This document shows, in pieces, positions 22,613 through 37,698 of a DNA stretch of 39,417 nt (positions are counted from its first letter, which is position 1; every line of letters starts with the position of its first letter). The translations under genes were made by a program, and so were the position numbers. The stretch spans positions 1-39,417 of the forward strand of contig JBCNVD010000006.1 in NCBI GenBank assembly GCA_039630345.1, given 5' to 3'. The notes beneath the pieces were generated by a model that saw nothing but the letters and a program-made list of their open reading frames with translations, was not told the DNA's origin and ran no database searches. The DNA is from Aquificaceae bacterium (lineage in GTDB: Bacteria; Aquificota; Aquificia; Aquificales; Aquificaceae).

Positions 22613-23971
22613 TCAGCCTATAGCACCGTAGGTGCGGGCTCTAAATTTAGCCCCAAGAGAAAGTGCAAGCTCTCTGGTTTTATCTATGTCTACCCCCGGA
22701 TAGTCAACGGCACTTGCTATGACTTCAAAGCCATTTTGCAACGCCTCTTTGATAAATTCGCAAACTTTATGGAAAGTATCAGCCCTTACGGGCTTGCAAA
22801 TGAGATTATAAGTCTCATCGTTCTGGGCATTTAGACTAACAGACCAGATGTCAATAAGTCCTTTAAGCTCTTTTAGACGCTCTTTAGGTGTAAAGCTTAG
22901 CATAAGGCCGTTTGTATCGACCCTGACCCTTTTTGCGCCTTTTGATTTAAGCCATGCGCTTACTTCCTTAAGGGTATCAAAGCGCAAAGTGGGCTCTCCA
23001 TAACCACAGAAGACGACCTCTTCGTAAGGAGTTGGGTCTTTGATTGCCTCAATTATCTCCATAGTGGAAGGGTCTCTCTCAAGCCACACCCAGTGACCCT
23101 TAACAGTAAAGTCTCGCTCGCGCTCTCTTTGACAAAATACGCAATGCAGGTTGCATCTGTTTGTAAGGTTTATATAAAGCCTGTTGTTTATAACATAAGT
23201 TATGGTGTTTGAAGGTCTTTCAAGACCGAGATTGAAGAGTTTTTTGGCATTCTGGGATGTCATTCTGATGATATCTTCCAGGTTGCTATTTGGGACCAGT
23301 TTAGAGAGCTCTTCAGCAACGTATATGAGGTTTTTCGGCGTGTTTTTCTGACCCCTTTTTGGCTGAGGGGGTAAATAAGGTGAGTCTGTTTCTATGACTA
23401 TTCTGGTCGTTGGCGTTTTTGAAGCGACTAATCTTAGCTCTTTTGCCCCCGGATAAGTTAAAATGCCCGAAAAAGATATGTAAAAACCCATATCAACGCA
23501 TGCCATCATAAACTCATATGAACCTGTAAAGCAGTGCATGACCCCGCCTGTTTCGTGAGCTCTTTCTTCTTTTAAAATTTTTAAAGTTTCCTGATCTGCC
23601 TGACGGGAATGCACAACCAGAGGAAGCCCGAGCTCTCTTGCAAGCCTTATGTGCTTTCTGAAAGACTCTTCCTGTATGTGAGGGGGCGAATAGTTTTTAT
23701 AAAAGTCAAGACCTGTTTCGCCTATGGCTTTTACCTTTTTGCTTGAGAGGGCCTTTTCTTTTAGCCACTTTATGTCGCAGGACTCTGCATCATGCGGATG
23801 AAAGCCAATGGCACAAAAGACTTTTTGGTTGCTATCTGCGAGCTCTATGGCTTTTTGAGATGTCTCAAGGTCGTATCCAACAGTTATTAAATATTCCAAA
23901 GAACCATCTCTCAAGGTAAGTTCAAGCTCATCAGAGTCAAGCAAGCTAAGGTGGCAGTGAGTGTCTATCAT
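22613..23971 (-). CDS. TatD family nuclease fused to C-terminal radical SAM domain
   Basis: MIDTHCH, GFHPH, IGETGLD, VHSR, MHCF, ETDSPY (TatD); YINLTNRCNLHCVFC (CxxxCxxC), FCGYGEPT, DTNG (radical SAM); start moved to ATG at 23971. Confidence 0.9.
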   Translation of the reverse strand: MIDTHCHLSLLDSDELELTLRDGSLEYLITVGYDLETSQKAIELADSNQKVFCAIGFHPHDAESCDIKWLKEKALSSKKVKAIGETGLDFYKNYSPPHIQEESFRKHIRLARELGLPLVVHSRQADQETLKILKEERAHETGGVMHCFTGSYEFMMACVDMGFYISFSGILTYPGAKELRLVASKTPTTRIVIETDSPYLPPQPKRGQKNTPKNLIYVAEELSKLVPNSNLEDIIRMTSQNAKKLFNLGLERPSNTITYVINNRLYINLTNRCNLHCVFCQRERERDFTVKGHWVWLERDPSTMEIIEAIKDPTPYEEVVFCGYGEPTLRFDTLKEVSAWLKSKGAKRVRVDTNGLMLSFTPKERLKELKGLIDIWSVSLNAQNDETYNLICKPVRADTFHKVCEFIKEALQNGFEVIASAVDYPGVDIDKTRELALSLGAKFRARTYGAIG

Positions 23972-23990
23972 AAGAGAAATATTAACCCTT

Positions 23991-24083
23991 CTATTTATCA
24001 AAAAATCGCCCGTAAAAGCCAAGCAGGAAAAATAGCCCTATAGAGAGTAAAACCAAAGTCAGAAAGTAGAAGAATACATCCAT
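23991..24083 (-). CDS. Candidate 30-aa single-pass membrane protein
   Basis: MDVFFYFLTLVLLSIGLFFLLGFYGRFFDK; one clean TM helix, fills the comM-tatD gap. Confidence 0.4.
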   Translation of the reverse strand: MDVFFYFLTLVLLSIGLFFLLGFYGRFFDK

Positions 24084-30559: not shown

Positions 30560-30636
30560 GGAGAGCGTAGCTCAGCTGGTAGAGCAGTGGACTGTGGATC
30601 CACGGGTCGCGGGTTCGAATCCCGTCGCTCTCCCCA
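30560..30636 (+). tRNA. tRNA-His (GUG)
   Basis: Acceptor GAGAGCG/CGCTCTC with encoded G-1 and C73; D-arm AGCTCAGCTGGTAGAGC; anticodon arm GTGGA-CTGTGGA-TCCAC; GGTTCGAATCC; encoded CCA. Confidence 0.96.
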
Positions 30637-31501: not shown

Positions 31502-31925
31502 TGTAGTCCGCGACCGTTGAAGCCGCTATTGAATGGGGCTTTACAACCGGTTTTAAGCCCTGAGCCAGCACAAATCCTATGGCTTCTTTTAAGATGATGC
31601 TTGAGCTATGCTGTGGACTTGGATTTATGTCAAGATGAACTTCAAAGCGTCTGTTGCCGACTACTTGCGATATCTCAAGCGCTAAAAATACAGCTCTGCT
31701 TACCTCTTCTAAAAGTCTCTGCCTTAGAGAGCGAATTCTTCTTACTCTTTCTACCTTCCAGAAGATCTTTGCGCCTCTGGAGGAGTCTATGTGGATAACA
31801 ACCACCGATACAAAAACGGTGTCTGACTTTACCTGCCTTGAATCACAGCCAACATAAATTGAGGTGGTTTCTGAAGTCTTTGCTATAAACTGCTTTACCT
31901 CTTCAAGGTCCTTCAGCTGAGGCAT
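31485..31925 (-). CDS. Ribonuclease H-like YkuK family protein (DUF458)
   Basis: IYVGCDS, SLRQRLLEEV, EVHLDIN, VKPHS.AAS.VAD motifs. Confidence 0.82.
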   Translation of the reverse strand: MPQLKDLEEVKQFIAKTSETTSIYVGCDSRQVKSDTVFVSVVVIHIDSSRGAKIFWKVERVRRIRSLRQRLLEEVSRAVFLALEISQVVGNRRFEVHLDINPSPQHSSSIILKEAIGFVLAQGLKPVVKPHSIAASTVADYITAKY

Positions 31926-32259
31926 CTTCAGCTCTTTTTGGTAGTCTAAAGTCCACTGCCCTAAAATGAGAAGGTCTGAAAAAGACCCAGCTTTTGAAGT
32001 TTTCGTAAGTTCTTGAATAGCAAACTTCGCATAAAAGTCCGTCTTCTACGAGTTTTGAGTTATCGTCACAGCATTCAGATAGATTCCAGAACTCATAATT
32101 GTCGTGAAAGACCATAACCCCACAGCTTTTGCATCTGTAAAGTTTGCAACCTTTTGAGTTTAAAAATGCCTCGAGGTCTTGGGTTATATCTAAATTATCT
32201 TCTTCAAACACATTTTTAAGAAATTCTATCTGTTTTTGAGTTAGTTCAGTTATTTTCAC
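31903..32259 (-). CDS. Hypothetical Cys-rich, putative metal-binding protein
   Basis: CKSC...CC...CEVC; overlaps both neighbours (translational coupling); GTG start at 32259 preferred. Confidence 0.65.
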   Translation of the reverse strand: MKITELTQKQIEFLKNVFEEDNLDITQDLEAFLNSKGCKLYRCKSCGVMVFHDNYEFWNLSECCDDNSKLVEDGLLCEVCYSRTYENFKSWVFFRPSHFRAVDFRLPKRAEDASAEGP

Positions 32260-32704
32260 GGTCTTTCTTTCTACAATCAGAGCATATGCCAAATATCTCA
32301 AGTCTGTGGTTTAGTGGCAAAAAGTCGTATTCTTCACAGACTTTTTCCTGGAGCTCCTCTATGTCCTGGTGGTTAAACTCTATGATTTTTCCGCATTGCA
32401 CACATACCAGATGTTCGTGGTGTGGCTTTCCTGCAACGAATTCGTATATGGTTCTGTTGCCAAGTTTTATGACCTCTCTTATTGCGCCAAAGTCCTGCAA
32501 CAGTCTTACGGTTCTGTAAATGGTGGAGCGACTTGCAAAAGAGCCGTTTTCCTGATTTGAAATCCAGCGAACGAGCTCCTCTATCTCAAAGTGAGAGCCA
32601 TAAGATGCTACCTTGTCCACAAGGTCTATCCTTCCTTTGGTTACCTTAAAGCCCTTTTGCCTGAGAAACTTCTCAAACCTGGTTTTGACCTCCTCCACTC
32701 TCAT
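32246..32704 (-). CDS. fur: Fur family transcriptional regulator
   Basis: HFEIEEL, SRSTIYRT, HHEHLVCVQCG, HRLEIFGICSDC; start moved to ATG at 32704. Confidence 0.92.
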   Translation of the reverse strand: MRVEEVKTRFEKFLRQKGFKVTKGRIDLVDKVASYGSHFEIEELVRWISNQENGSFASRSTIYRTVRLLQDFGAIREVIKLGNRTIYEFVAGKPHHEHLVCVQCGKIIEFNHQDIEELQEKVCEEYDFLPLNHRLEIFGICSDCRKKDRENN

Positions 32705-32741
32705 GATATTAATTATAGCTCTCATATGATATTAATTATAT
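32703..32741. promoter_or_regulatory. Tandem Fur/PerR-box-like operators over the fur promoter and start
   Basis: ATGATATTAATTATA at 32703-32717 and 32726-32740; each reads TGATATT-A-ATTATA, close to the 7-1-7 TGATAAT-n-ATTATCA consensus. Confidence 0.65.
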
Positions 32742-32780: not shown

Positions 32781-34829
32781 TTAGGCCATATGATCAGGTG
32801 CTTTTGTATCCTGCTTGCTATCTTGGCATACCACCTCAAAAAATGTGCTAAAGGGGACTCCAGTGCCGGATATTAAGGCGTTTCCAGTTGTTAAAGAAGA
32901 TAGACCGCTTATTAAATCTTCTCTGGCTTGCTCTATAAATGTCTTTAGCGTCTCAAGGTCGCTTGAGTTTACTATTCTGAAAAGAACCTGAGTGTTTAAT
33001 TGAGATAGAACATACTTGCTTACCTGCGCTGGTCTTTGAGTTATCACCGCCAGCCCGAGATTAAACTTTCTGCCCTCCGATGCTATTTTTCTAATCATTA
33101 TTAGAGAAAGGTTTTCTTTGCCAGAGGATGTATCGCCATAACCTCTCTCAGGGGCAAAGTTATGGGCTTCTTCAATTATTACCAATCTTCTCTTTCTGTT
33201 TGTTTTATTGTTGTTGAAAATTTTACTCAGGACAAGACCTGCTATGTTTGTTCTTGTTTCCGGGTCTGTAAGCCGGGAAAAGTCAGCTATTACTATCTTT
33301 TTGTCTGAGTTTATTAATGCTTTTATCTTATCGCAGGTTTGTTGTTGATTGCTGAGCGCATTTTCCCCGTAAAGTTCTTTCAGTAGATTATTTATTTGTT
33401 CTTTTATTCGCTCTGGTTCTTCCACTTCTATGTCTGTATGGTTATCCTGATCTTTTGATTTCTTTGTTTTTTGTTTTTCGTCTTCTACTTTTAGCTCATT
33501 TAATATCTCCTCTAGGCTTCTCTTGCATAGCTCAGAGCTCTGCACTGATGGTCTTATGTACTTTTCCAGCATGGAACTGTTGTCTCTTGCGAGGTTGGAG
33601 TTTCCGGTAACAAGTCTTGCAAACCCTGCTTCTTTAATCAGTTCCTGCACCTGCTCTGCGTATACAGGAAACAGAGACTCTTCAAAGGTTATTAATTGGG
33701 CGCTTTGCAATGGAGATATTTCCTCATAATACTCCCCATGGGCGTCAAAAACAATTATTTGCAAGTCCTCTATGGTTTTTGATAGCTCTGGTATTAGTTT
33801 CTTTTTAACAAAGTAGCTTTTGCCAGAGCCTGTTGTGCCAACAACTAATAGATGCCTCTTTAGAACCTCGCTTGCATCAAAGTAGACTTTTGTATCTGAG
33901 TTTTTTAACTTTCCAATCGGAATGGGTTTTTCCATCTTAAACCCGGAAGAGTTGCTTTTAAGAGCCTCTTCAAGGGATTTTTCTGAAGCTTTATATACTG
34001 GCTTTCCTGCCTCAAAAGGTCTTTGGGGCATATCTAACTTGGAATCTTTGAGTTTTCCAACTACTTCCACCGTGGCTATTTCCACAATGCCTGAATTTGA
34101 ATTAAGGTAAGAATAGATTGCAAACTTTCTCCAGTCTGGATCTTTTGAGTTTGAGAATATTTTTTTAAAGTCTGAAATAGGGGCAAGAACCTCTGACTCC
34201 CTGGAAGAAAAAGGGTTTGCAAAGAAGCTTGTGTTGTATGAATATATGCTACTTACTCTCCCAAGAACCTCTCCGTCTTCATCTACTTTCACATAAGAGT
34301 TTATCTCTATGGGTTCAAGCAAAATAAACTCAAAAGACTGCGGGCGCACCGGGTTTAAAACAAAGCCTACAAGGTCTTTTTTTAGCGGGTAAGAGTATTC
34401 ATTTTTGATTTTCTCAAAGTAATCAATAGCTTGCTTTACCTGAGCTGGGTCTTCGCTGTAGTGGGCCCCTACCTCTATGTTTCCCGTGGATATGTCAGAT
34501 AGTCCGCTATCTGTATAGTTAGCCGAGCCCAGAACAACCTTGCTTTCGTCTATTATTAAAAACTTGGCGTGTAATCTATCGCAAAGGTAAACATGCCCCC
34601 CTGCTTCTTTTATTTTTCTAAAAACTCTCGCATCCGTTATTTCAGAATCCTTTATCTCGCTTGCTCTTAGTATTATCTGTATATCTAGGTTTTTAGATTT
34701 TGCTATGTCGATGAGCTCTTCGAAGTATTTACCCCTTATCCAGGCAGAAGCTAGCTTCAGGCTCTTGCTTGCATTTTTGGCGGAATCTTTTACCCTTTCG
34801 TATATCCCGTCGCTGGTTAGAAATTCCAC
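32781..34829 (-). CDS. PLD (HKD) nuclease domain fused to HAS-barrel and HerA/DUF87 ATPase
   Basis: LHAKFLIID-x6-GSAN (HxKxxxxD); HAS-barrel-like region; HLLVVGTTGSGKS, VFDAHGEY, IIEEAHNF, EGRKFNLG...TQRP; GTG start. Confidence 0.88.
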   Translation of the reverse strand: MEFLTSDGIYERVKDSAKNASKSLKLASAWIRGKYFEELIDIAKSKNLDIQIILRASEIKDSEITDARVFRKIKEAGGHVYLCDRLHAKFLIIDESKVVLGSANYTDSGLSDISTGNIEVGAHYSEDPAQVKQAIDYFEKIKNEYSYPLKKDLVGFVLNPVRPQSFEFILLEPIEINSYVKVDEDGEVLGRVSSIYSYNTSFFANPFSSRESEVLAPISDFKKIFSNSKDPDWRKFAIYSYLNSNSGIVEIATVEVVGKLKDSKLDMPQRPFEAGKPVYKASEKSLEEALKSNSSGFKMEKPIPIGKLKNSDTKVYFDASEVLKRHLLVVGTTGSGKSYFVKKKLIPELSKTIEDLQIIVFDAHGEYYEEISPLQSAQLITFEESLFPVYAEQVQELIKEAGFARLVTGNSNLARDNSSMLEKYIRPSVQSSELCKRSLEEILNELKVEDEKQKTKKSKDQDNHTDIEVEEPERIKEQINNLLKELYGENALSNQQQTCDKIKALINSDKKIVIADFSRLTDPETRTNIAGLVLSKIFNNNKTNRKRRLVIIEEAHNFAPERGYGDTSSGKENLSLIMIRKIASEGRKFNLGLAVITQRPAQVSKYVLSQLNTQVLFRIVNSSDLETLKTFIEQAREDLISGLSSLTTGNALISGTGVPFSTFFEVVCQDSKQDTKAPDHMA

Positions 34830-34914
34830 TGGAAAAATTATAACCTCTTTAAAAAAGCCCTGAAAGGGGTAAAATCTGCATTAAGTGACCTTTAGGCTGG
34901 TTTAATATCTTCTT

Positions 34915-37698
34915 GTGGATGCAATCATCGTAAAAGGGGCTCGCCAGCACAACCTTAAAAACATCAGCGTGAAAATACCCAAAAACACCCTTACTATAAT
35001 CACCGGCCCTTCTGGTTCAGGTAAGTCCTCTCTGGCTTTTGACACCATCTACGCCGAAGGCTATAGAAGGTATGTTGAATCTTTGTCTGCATATGCAAGG
35101 CAGTTTCTTGGCGTTTTGGAAAAGCCAGATGTAGACTCTATAGATGGGCTTTCGCCCGCTATCGCTATAGATCAAAAAACCACCTCCAAAAACCCACGCT
35201 CCACGGTAGGCACTATCACTGAAATCTTCGACTATCTTAGGGTTTTGTTTGCAACGATCGGAAAGCCCCACTGCCCGGAGTGTCTAAGACCCCTCAATGG
35301 TCTTCCTGCCCACGAGATCTTAGAAAGAGTCTGGCAGGATTCGGCAGGCATGCGAATAGCCATCCTTGCACCTCTCGTTCGCGAAAAAAAGGGCGAATTC
35401 AGAGAGCTTTTGAAAGACCTTGATAGAAGGGGCTTTTCCAGAGTCAGGGTAGACGGGCAATACATGCGAATAGCAGAAGTTCCGCCCCTTGAAAAAAACA
35501 GAAAACACAACATAGAGCTCGTTCTTGACAGGTTTACCTTTGAAGATTTTGAACGCCCAAGAGCTTTAAATAGCATCGAAAAAGCCCTGGAAATATCTCA
35601 GGGTCTTGTGCTTATTCACAATCTTGATAACTCTTCGGAAGAGCTCTATAGCGAAAAGCTCATGTGCCCGGAGCACGGCTTTACCATTCCTGAGCTATCT
35701 TCGAGGCTTTTCTCCTTTAACTCACCTCTTGGGGCCTGCAAGACCTGCAAGGGGCTTGGGGTAAAGTGGGAAATTGACGCAAAAGCCATTATTAATCCAA
35801 AACTTCCCGCAATAAATGCCTTCAAGATAACAGAGTCAGGACTTTTTGACTACATTCGCTTCTCTGTGCAAAACATTCTAAAAAAACTTGGCTATGACCC
35901 TCAAACGCCCTTTGGCGAGCTCCCTGCTGGGGTAAAAGACCTTCTGCTATATGGGGGCAAAATCCAAAATGCCCAATTTGAAGGCATTATTCGCCACCTT
36001 GAGAGGCGATTTTTCGAAGAAGACTCCGAGCGCATACGCGAAGAAATAGGCGAATACATAAGAGAGCTCCCATGCCCGGATTGCAAAGGCGCAAGGTTAA
36101 GACCCGAAGCTCTCGCGGTTTTTGTAGGCAATAAAAACATCCACGAAATTTGCACCATGCCACTCTCTCAGGCAAGAGAGTTTTTTATCTCTCTTTATGA
36201 AAATCTACCAAAGCGCGAGCTTGCGCTCGCAGAGAGACTCCTTGAGGAAATAAATCAAAGACTCTGGTTTTTAGTAAGCGTGGGGCTTGACTATTTAGAG
36301 CTTTCAAGGAGCGCAACCACCCTCTCCGGGGGCGAGATGCAAAGAATCAGACTTGCAACCCAGATTGGCTCAAAGCTAAGCGGGGTTTTGTATGTCCTTG
36401 ACGAGCCTTCGATAGGTCTTCACCCAAGAGATACCCAAAGACTCATAAACACCTTAAGAGAGCTCAGAGACCTTGGAAATACCGTCATAGTTGTAGAGCA
36501 TGACCCTGAGACTATCTTAAGCGCAGACTGGATAATCGATATGGGCCCAGGGGCTGGCGAAAATGGCGGGAGGATAGTTGCGCAGGGCACATGCGAGGAT
36601 ATACTCTCACACCCGGAGTCTTTAACAGGTGCATACTTATCTGGCAGGTTATCTATCCCGGTTCCTGAATCAAGAAGGGTTCCCGATGGCAGGCAAATAA
36701 CCATAGTTGGTGCAAAACTTCACAACCTTAAAAACATCACCGTAAAAATACCCGTGGGTCTATTTGTTTGTATAACCGGCGTTTCAGGCAGTGGAAAGTC
36801 AACGCTGATTTACGACATTTTGTGGAATTATGCACGCGGGGTTTTGTCTGGTTCTGACGCAACAAAAGAAGGCTTTGACGAAATTCTTGGTCTTGAGCAA
36901 TTTGACAGGGTTATTAACGTAGACCAATCGCCAATTGGCAGAACGCCAAGAAGCAACCCCGCAACTTACACAAAAATATTTGACCAAATTAGAGAACTCT
37001 TTGCCAAAACCCCGGAGGCAAAATCGAGAGGTTATACATCAAGCAGGTTTTCTTTCAATGTCAAAGGTGGCAGATGCGAAGCCTGCGAAGGCGAAGGGGT
37101 CATAAAGGTCGAGATGCACTTTTTGCCCCCGGTTTATGTAACCTGCGATATTTGCAAGGGCAGGCGATACAATAGCGAAACGCTTCAGATAAGGTACAAA
37201 GACAAAAACATCGCGGAAGTTCTTGATATGACCGTCTCTCAGGCTATGGAGTTTTTTGAAAACATCCCCGGCATTAGAAGAAAGCTAAAGCTCCTTGATG
37301 AAATAGGTCTTGGGTATATAAAGCTTGGTCAGCCCGCAACTACCCTCTCAGGCGGCGAAGCTCAGAGGATAAAGCTCGCAAGAGAGCTCTCAAAAAGAGA
37401 CTCGGGCAAAACGCTCTATCTTCTGGATGAGCCAACCACCGGACTTCATATGGATGATGTAAGAAAGCTCATAGAAATCATCCAAAGGCTCGTAGATAGA
37501 GGCAACACCGTTGTTGTTATAGAACATAACATTGACGTTATCAAATGCGCAGACTGGGTTATAGAACTGGGTCCCGAAGGGGGCTTAGGTGGCGGAAGGG
37601 TTATTTGCGAGGGAACCCCTGAGGATGTTGCCTCGTTTGAAGATTCTCACACAGGGTTTTTTTTAAGAAAAGCCCTCTTTAGCCAGAGAGGTCTTTAG
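34915..37698 (+). CDS. uvrA: Excinuclease ABC subunit A
   Basis: GARQHNLKN, GPSGSGKSSLAFDT, Zn fingers, two LSGGE signatures, second Walker A GVSGSGKS. Confidence 0.97.
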   Translation: MDAIIVKGARQHNLKNISVKIPKNTLTIITGPSGSGKSSLAFDTIYAEGYRRYVESLSAYARQFLGVLEKPDVDSIDGLSPAIAIDQKTTSKNPRSTVGTITEIFDYLRVLFATIGKPHCPECLRPLNGLPAHEILERVWQDSAGMRIAILAPLVREKKGEFRELLKDLDRRGFSRVRVDGQYMRIAEVPPLEKNRKHNIELVLDRFTFEDFERPRALNSIEKALEISQGLVLIHNLDNSSEELYSEKLMCPEHGFTIPELSSRLFSFNSPLGACKTCKGLGVKWEIDAKAIINPKLPAINAFKITESGLFDYIRFSVQNILKKLGYDPQTPFGELPAGVKDLLLYGGKIQNAQFEGIIRHLERRFFEEDSERIREEIGEYIRELPCPDCKGARLRPEALAVFVGNKNIHEICTMPLSQAREFFISLYENLPKRELALAERLLEEINQRLWFLVSVGLDYLELSRSATTLSGGEMQRIRLATQIGSKLSGVLYVLDEPSIGLHPRDTQRLINTLRELRDLGNTVIVVEHDPETILSADWIIDMGPGAGENGGRIVAQGTCEDILSHPESLTGAYLSGRLSIPVPESRRVPDGRQITIVGAKLHNLKNITVKIPVGLFVCITGVSGSGKSTLIYDILWNYARGVLSGSDATKEGFDEILGLEQFDRVINVDQSPIGRTPRSNPATYTKIFDQIRELFAKTPEAKSRGYTSSRFSFNVKGGRCEACEGEGVIKVEMHFLPPVYVTCDICKGRRYNSETLQIRYKDKNIAEVLDMTVSQAMEFFENIPGIRRKLKLLDEIGLGYIKLGQPATTLSGGEAQRIKLARELSKRDSGKTLYLLDEPTTGLHMDDVRKLIEIIQRLVDRGNTVVVIEHNIDVIKCADWVIELGPEGGLGGGRVICEGTPEDVASFEDSHTGFFLRKALFSQRGL

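Follow-up and report, generated by a model that had tools for sequence, protein, structure and literature searches.

The window analysed here, a stretch of 39,417 nucleotides from an Aquificaceae bacterium (assembly GCA_039630345.1, contig JBCNVD010000006.1; genome G000 below), contains a gene in which a PLD domain, a HAS barrel and a HerA ATPase follow one another in a single chain. The question raised by this locus is whether such a fusion would be a self-contained, ATP-driven nuclease and, if so, whether it would act against invading DNA or on the broken ends of the cell's own chromosome. The features on which the analysis is based are collected in Table 1.

Table 1. Coordinates in the window of the fusion gene, its domains and motifs, and its neighbours.
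Feature	Position	Strand	Basis
PLD(HKD)-HAS barrel-HerA fusion gene, 682 aa	32781..34829	-	ORF and Pfam; AlphaFold pLDDT 88, pTM 0.81
Single-HKD PLD domain, residues 1-148, Nuc/NucT/Zucchini size and fold	34386..34829	-	Pfam PLDc_2; Nuc 1bys Z 19.5; NucT TM 0.77-0.80
HxK(x4)D(x6)GSxN motif, H87-N104	34518..34571	-	Invariant, 61/61 fusion rows
PLD residue E119	34473-34475	-	Invariant, 61/61 fusion rows
HAS barrel, about residues 152-281	33987..34376	-	Pfam PF09378; model strands; aligns with HerA N-terminal domains
Insert of ~48 residues in HAS barrel, residues 198-245	34095..34238	-	Alignments
HerA ATPase with helical insertion, residues 300-668	32826..33932	-	Pfam, structure match, alignment
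HerA Walker A, GTTGSGKS, residues 331-338	33816-33839	-	Sequence, alignment
HerA Walker B, EEAH, residues 553-556	33162-33173	-	Sequence, alignment
HerA EGRK, residues 585-588	33066-33077	-	Sequence, alignment
HerA TQRP, residues 597-600	33030-33041	-	Sequence, alignment
TATAAT, 7 nt upstream of GTG	34837..34842	-	Sequence
uvrA, divergent neighbour, 85 bp away, outside the system	34915..37698	+	Adjacency limited to this genus
fur, downstream neighbour, outside the system	32246..32725	-	Pfam, neighbour comparison

The fusion ORF (32781-34829, minus strand) begins with GTG and encodes 682 aa with no internal stops, indicating an intact gene. Three Pfam families were matched over their cut-offs, namely PLDc_2 at residues 17-141 (E 1e-13), the HAS barrel PF09378 at residues 160-261 (E 1e-6) and the DUF87/HerA central domain PF01935 at residues 303-537 (E 4.5e-26). 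With its HAS barrel followed by an ASCE ATPase, the chain fits the HerA family of the FtsK-HerA superfamily. Each chain carries one HxK(x4)D motif, at H87, which is followed by GSAN and by E119. The single HKD motif, HAS barrel and complete HerA of the original prediction are borne out by Pfam, by the motifs and by the fold matches described below. As judged from alignments, the insert in the HAS barrel is shorter in one clade of the family (the resident clade, see below) and much shorter in unfused HerA, and its aromatic residues are conserved in the other, mobile branch. No transmembrane stretch was found in the protein (best 19-residue hydropathy 1.12), and the PLD domain, with 21 K+R versus 24 D+E, is not net basic.

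An AlphaFold model, built on 93 family sequences, was compared with 48,161 solved chains. Residues 152-668 aligned with Sulfolobus HerA 4d2i over 422 residues (Z 32.4, rmsd 5.1), and the closest structures of this motor part are archaeal repair HerA proteins (9x1m/9x1l, 4d2i). Residues 1-151 aligned with Nuc 1bys over 144 residues (Z 19.5, rmsd 2.0). It is important to mention that the top of this fold ranking is a tie between Nuc (19.5), the two-domain bacterial phospholipase 7e0m (19.1) and NucT (18.9); Zucchini and BfiI were matched with Z 16.8 and 15.9, and the PLD domain folded alone again gave a mixed match list, as in the whole model. The domain had been predicted to be of the nuclease type, and its motif, its size and the Nuc match agree with this, whereas the tie with phospholipase 7e0m does not discriminate. 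Its size of 148 residues and the lack of any membrane segment speak for the Nuc type rather than a lipase.

Of 7,999 candidates scored in the protein search, 134 were matches. The 95 best of them, query included, have E values of 3e-57 or better, and nearly all of them contain both PLD and HerA domains; 93 of the best 95 entered the family alignment, two fragments being left out. When 1.84 billion representatives were searched with a profile, the top 52 matches included 41 members of at least 600 aa; strict motif patterns fit 28 of these 41, and the other 13 depart from them, mostly by a minor alteration of GSxN. Distant members reach 720-760 aa, and databases annotate members of the family as DUF87 or PLD-domain proteins. 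The fusion is a sizeable family and not a rarity. In a set of 61 fusion rows, drawn from loci thinned to 80% identity together with database proteins and additional genomes, PLD residues H87, K89, D94, G101, S102, N104 and E119 are invariant throughout (61/61), as are ATPase residues G331, G336, K337, E554, E585, G586, R587, K588, Q598 and R599. Since the catalytic residues of both halves are invariant in all rows, both halves are taken to be under selection for catalysis. The motor had been described as intact, and this invariance extends to its Walker A and B, RK finger and QRP sensor residues.

At E<1e-20, the PLD profile of the fusion found matches in 103/177 other genomes of the phylum (by bacterial family, f1 63/89, f2 24/50, f3 3/8, f4 0/2 and f5 13/28), which are counts of PLD-domain matches rather than of full genes, in genomes many of which are incomplete. 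At the same threshold the domain is absent from the single-contig genomes G035 and G038. Named loci of the fusion family belong to Aquificota, Acidobacteriota, Kryptoniota, Thermotogota, WOR-3, Zetaproteobacteria and archaea; they were recovered with an alignment query of genome contigs, a single-sequence query having given none. Split copies of the fusion are present in G108 and G175. Two plasmid records match it, one over the full length, and the Aquifex aeolicus plasmid ece1 carries a broken copy in pieces (51% identity). A viral origin was considered and rejected, the three viral-contig matches being all to the ATPase part alone.

In a quick tree of 67 rows, 26 rows form a clade (SH-aLRT 100), here called the resident clade, which tracks genera and whose members have retained housekeeping neighbours; the non-resident members are mixed across phyla. 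The window protein groups with Pyrinomonadaceae and Ca. Kryptonium rows in this tree (SH-aLRT 96) and in a second quick tree of 30 rows (SH-aLRT 100). A single clade for the 14 rows from the window's family was rejected (AU p 4e-45), although this group was chosen after the first tree and the rejection would also arise from two old paralogues. Both types of fusion, resident and non-resident, are found together in G009, G019, G024 and G027. The window gene belongs to a mobile, horizontally spread branch that crosses phyla.

No neighbour family is conserved across the 104 fusion loci. Near non-resident members we found McrBC (G027, G155), type III R-M genes (G168, L018; remnants in L053), Csm/Cas6 clusters (G173, G177) and AbiEii/PIN genes (G024, G165, G166, G036), as well as Piwi (L016), GmrSD (L112) and WYL (L057, L061, L081). 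Defence neighbours were present in 16/34 non-resident contexts versus 2/16 resident ones (Fisher p 0.026; 18/34 non-resident contexts are without one), in a tally that was coded by hand, that includes related and hence non-independent genomes, and whose groups were drawn up once the tree and the neighbours had been seen. It counts distinct contexts out to 3 ORFs; a locus of unclear clade, or flanked by fewer than two ORFs, was left out, and RHS, dynamin and YacL neighbours were not counted as defence. The excess in the mobile branch is suggestive, and the defence option of the original prediction gains support from these neighbours together with the cross-phylum spread of the branch. A patchy distribution in defence islands had been proposed as the mark of such a role: the distribution is indeed patchy, as in f5 and f2, and defence neighbours are frequent in the mobile branch, whereas the resident clade lies among housekeeping genes.

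Three of these loci deserve a separate description. An archaeal family member (L016:867-5184) overlaps a downstream 806-aa Argonaute whose catalytic aspartates are apparently kept. In L276:892-10488 (G155), a PLD-HerA gene, a trypsin-like protease, a second HerA-domain protein, McrB and McrC are co-directional, and this run is a candidate defence operon. Downstream of the family member in L280:2022-7766 (G041) there are three co-directional ORFs (292, 579 and 1060 aa), for which no Pfam match was obtained.

In the window itself, the fusion is located between uvrA and fur within a group of housekeeping genes. As had been noted, these neighbours include no NurA or Sir2 partner. To call the gene "stand-alone" is nevertheless an overstatement, because the genome contains an unlinked NurA-like gene, and in this phylum linkage of nurA to herA is not the usual state. 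The head-to-head position with uvrA had been put forward as an argument for repair. This argument fails because the adjacency is restricted to the window genome and its congener G043 (2/104 family loci); in the other three uvrA-containing loci, and in G001, G010, G084 and G089, uvrA lies elsewhere relative to the fusion. A link with fur was likewise dismissed: Fur also follows the family gene in L010, which is attributed to chance because it is just 27% identical to the window Fur. No integrase was found in the window, and the sole tRNA lies 2.1 kb from the fusion.

The TATAAT before the GTG of the fusion had been singled out in the original prediction; it is present, and its spacing is typical of this genome. 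A -10-like hexamer lies 6-8 nt before the in-frame start of 157/998 long ORFs of the genome, and the genome-wide counts per position are 42-65 at 6-9 nt versus 7-26 elsewhere, a peak that suggests many leaderless transcripts. No -35/-10 pair was called for the fusion gene in a consensus promoter scan, and its TATAAT is likely a leaderless-type promoter, a pattern common in the genome. The fusion is AT-richer than uvrA, as had been remarked (GC 39.7% versus 46.4%), but among 507 genes it lies at the 13th percentile while uvrA itself lies at the 92nd. A recent foreign origin by composition was rejected, since the GC (13th percentile), GC3 (30th) and codon distance (90th of 123 genes) of the fusion are not unusual.

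Several further observations were made in the window. Between the fusion stop and fur (32695-32740), the promoter and start of fur occur twice as nearly identical tandem copies, each with a -10 hexamer and an ATG; the second ATG (32704) is more probably the true start, and each copy also resembles a Fur box. A 132-aa ORF with two CxxC motifs (31903-32301, minus strand) lies between fur and an RNase H-like gene and gave no Pfam, NCBIfam or PADLOC match. A tRNA-His (30561-30636) overlaps the mechanical start (30587) of an EpmA-like ORF, whose true start is therefore later. Finally, a TatD DNase is fused to a radical SAM domain at 22613-24022 (minus strand).

The reading that we prefer has two parts. 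As a biochemical model, an ATP-coupled nuclease acting on DNA is probable; that this would be an ATP-driven, self-contained DNase directed against phage or plasmid (mobile) DNA has about an even chance of being correct. In HerA machines, DNA enters at the helical base and the HAS ring is the putative exit, NurA and DUF4297 bind at that ring (excerpts of PMC9960219 and PMC11291478), and the RK pair is a trans-acting finger (PMC11291478, excerpt). PLD nucleases are dimers with one shared active site that cleave through a phosphohistidine (excerpts of PMC5714352 and PMC2853115), and BfiI cuts without metal (PMC2853115, excerpt). By analogy, the fusion would form a hexameric ring that pumps double-stranded DNA toward the HAS exit and into its own paired PLD domains, which the short linker would place at that exit. 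Pairing of these domains would give up to three active sites, and the insert of the HAS barrel might, as a guess, hold them. Loading at free DNA ends would provide the rule by which self is told from non-self. A more elaborate scenario, which we regard as unlikely, is that of a one-gene antiviral DNA shredder moving between hot-spring phyla, a HerA ring with PLD blades of its own, which one bacterial family would have domesticated and kept as the sole HerA. There it would substitute for the missing RecBCD/AddAB, possibly by means of both these PLD domains and a NurA encoded elsewhere.

Housekeeping end processing is the most probable of the rivals. Here the fusion would be the cell's HerA and would resect or clear broken ends with SbcCD, by means of its PLD domains, an unlinked NurA-like nuclease, or both. 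The genome was at one point taken to be without NurA; the Pfam search had missed the gene, and a local profile found it (C28:38970-39893), downstream of obg, with both DG motifs and on another contig than the fusion. SbcD is also present on another contig, an AddA/RecB-type nuclease was not detected in this genome, and the fusion is the sole HerA found in it; repair stays a live rival for these reasons, although we consider it rather doubtful. In f1, 70/72 HerA-domain rows with E<1e-17 belong to the fusion family (by-eye comparison, with at most 28 candidates scored per genome), 82/89 genomes have a NurA-like gene, and a strong AddA/RecB nuclease match was obtained in one genome only (G070). 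In five f2 genomes (G111, G112, G113, G115 and G124), the resident gene is succeeded co-directionally by obg and then, within 0-2 genes, by nurA. The best family match (NF040819, far below its cut-off) and the closest structures are repair HerA proteins, and the housekeeping surroundings of the window copy, like those of the resident clade, count against a defence role. The fusion and the NurA-like protein also diverge at similar rates (64/66% and 53/52%): between G000 and G043 the fusion is 64% identical, the NurA-like protein 66% and UvrA 92%. Fast evolution of the fusion was accordingly rejected, since it changes as quickly as the NurA-like protein does, and for the same reason there is no sign of an arms race.

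Against end processing, 23 f1 genomes have a NurA-like gene but no fusion PLD match, and these include the single-contig G035 and G038, in which there is no strong HerA match at all; some of the 23 are incomplete or have a contig-cut copy (G022, G041). The NurA-like gene may have a HerA-independent role in f1, because it is present also in genomes without a strong HerA match. Genomes of f2 and f5 have an unfused HerA as a separate gene in addition to the fusion, and often an AddA/RecB-type nuclease as well. From these absences in f1 and the separate HerA in f2 and f5, we conclude that the fusion is dispensable and not tied to NurA. Moreover, linkage of nurA to the fusion is seen only in the resident clade in f2, where obg-nurA adjacency exists also without a fusion nearby and where NurA is of a different type (0/50 matches to the f1 NurA-like profile). 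The PLD domain tethered to the HAS barrel may, in addition, block the NurA site. The nearest unfused HerA proteins lie beside nurA in 0/74 loci within 2 ORFs, by a phylum NurA profile that may be insensitive. Complementarity with AddAB was sought as well and rejected: some f2 genera have both and others neither. As a separate observation, a gene of ~600 aa lies directly before an unfused HerA in L300 (G011 C1:366559-369465) and L301 (G004 C125); both genomes are without a fusion match, and in G011 the ~600-aa gene is a weak NurA match.

Two other explanations are less probable. The ring might cut chromosomal DNA and push it into neighbouring cells, thereby spreading its own gene, in the manner of Thermus TdtA. 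This hexameric ATPase of the HerA family is encoded on a mobile element, and its NurA-like nuclease and a restriction enzyme are required if transfer is to be efficient (PMC5365140, excerpt). Thermophile hosts, spread across phyla, R-M neighbours and weak matches to CedD and CedB would fit DNA donation, but we hold it to be improbable: beside family genes there is no recurrent integrase, membrane channel or transfer gene of another kind, the protein has no transmembrane stretch, and the Ced matches, which fall well short of their cut-offs, score less than the HerA matches. Alternatively, the PLD domain might act on RNA, nucleotides or lipids, the HerA ring being a sensor and scaffold, as in Sir2-HerA, that triggers growth arrest. 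Scores as good as that of Nuc were obtained for Zucchini, PLD3 and a bacterial phospholipase, the domain is not net basic, and NucT cuts RNA as well as single-stranded DNA (PMC5714352, excerpt). We hold such a substrate to be very improbable for a soluble, single-HKD domain of Nuc size (148 residues) that is placed where DNA would putatively leave a DNA motor, and a nuclease acting on DNA remains the model that we favour.

Literature searches found no paper on a PLD-HAS-HerA fusion, although supplements of comparative surveys could list it. Iyer et al. 2004 reportedly linked HerA ATPases to PLD/Nuc-type nucleases, with Aquifex included. The architecture probably appears in that survey. Term look-ups in the parts covered of PMC12839542, PMC10853773, PMC6546367, PMC2743648, PMC4158269, PMC11090510, PMC11442185 and bioRxiv 10.1101/2025.07.10.664194 returned no such fusion. 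The parts and logic of the fusion are already known, and the surprise is moderate; it is a real single-chain form of HerA plus nuclease, and the family is apparently uncharacterised. Known HerA machines use a separate effector, while with a fused single-HKD domain six half-sites would be fixed on a six-fold ring; the structural question is then how two-fold active sites are seated on a six-fold motor. The fusion offers a one-gene, thermostable system for assay. The existence of a mobile branch with defence neighbours and of a resident clade in genomes without detected AddAB permits a direct test of the interconversion of defence and repair, and the fusion may bear on DNA-end processing in these bacteria.

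Among known systems, Nuc, NucT, Zucchini and BfiI share with the fusion the HxK(x4)D(x6)GSxN signature and the fold (excerpts of PMC5714352 and PMC2853115); the PLD domain of the fusion differs in being tethered to a predicted hexameric motor, without a signal peptide or a sequence-recognition domain. A PLD nuclease is combined with an ATPase in defence in SauUSI (7clg), DISARM DrmC, Mokosh, Azaca and the HKD-SF2 protein PbeA, as in the fusion (excerpts of PMC10853773 and bioRxiv 10.1101/2025.07.10.664194); the motor of SauUSI and PbeA is a helicase, whereas that of the fusion is predicted to be a HerA ring. The fusion has weak profile matches to DrmC, MkoB/C and ZacB, confined to the PLD domain, and the DrmC match is below the given cut-off; in PADLOC, suggested earlier as a check on a defence role, three downstream neighbours have no match. 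The TdtA-NurA transjugation module of ICEth1 also combines a HerA ring with a nuclease in a thermophile, is mobile and has R-M genes nearby (PMC5365140, excerpt); its separate NurA-like gene and integrase-bearing element do not recur at fusion loci.

HerA-NurA (Sulfolobus 4d2i, Thermococcus 9x1l/9x1m, Deinococcus 7f6d; PMC9960219, excerpt) gives the best sequence and structure matches and has, like the fusion, a HAS barrel, an ASCE ATPase with a helical insertion and a nuclease placed at the HAS ring. There, however, a separate NurA dimer is encoded by a linked gene, whereas the fusion has a PLD/HKD domain in the same chain, a family-specific insert in its HAS barrel, and a locus without nurA, mre11 or rad50. 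DUF4297-HerA (Hailibu) and Sir2-HerA (Nezha) share with the fusion the RK-finger HerA motor (PMC11291478, excerpt; 8xau, 9c1m, 8j4u, 8wiv), and with its family the effector on the HAS ring and relatives in defence neighbourhoods; no DUF4297 or Sir2 Pfam family was found among the scanned neighbours of relatives. The fusion scores below the cut-offs of NCBIfam NF040819 (131 bits, cut-off 970) and of the antiphage HerA profiles NF042943 (113/800) and NF042944 (84/850). Because these scores are far below cut-off and a linked partner is absent, the fusion, though it would operate in a similar way to both, is a member of neither HerA-NurA nor DUF4297-HerA. The antiphage systems consist of two genes, with 12 DUF4297 effectors on 6 HerA subunits according to the excerpted description, whereas the fusion is one gene with a fixed 1:1 stoichiometry and a PLD-type effector predicted to be metal-independent.
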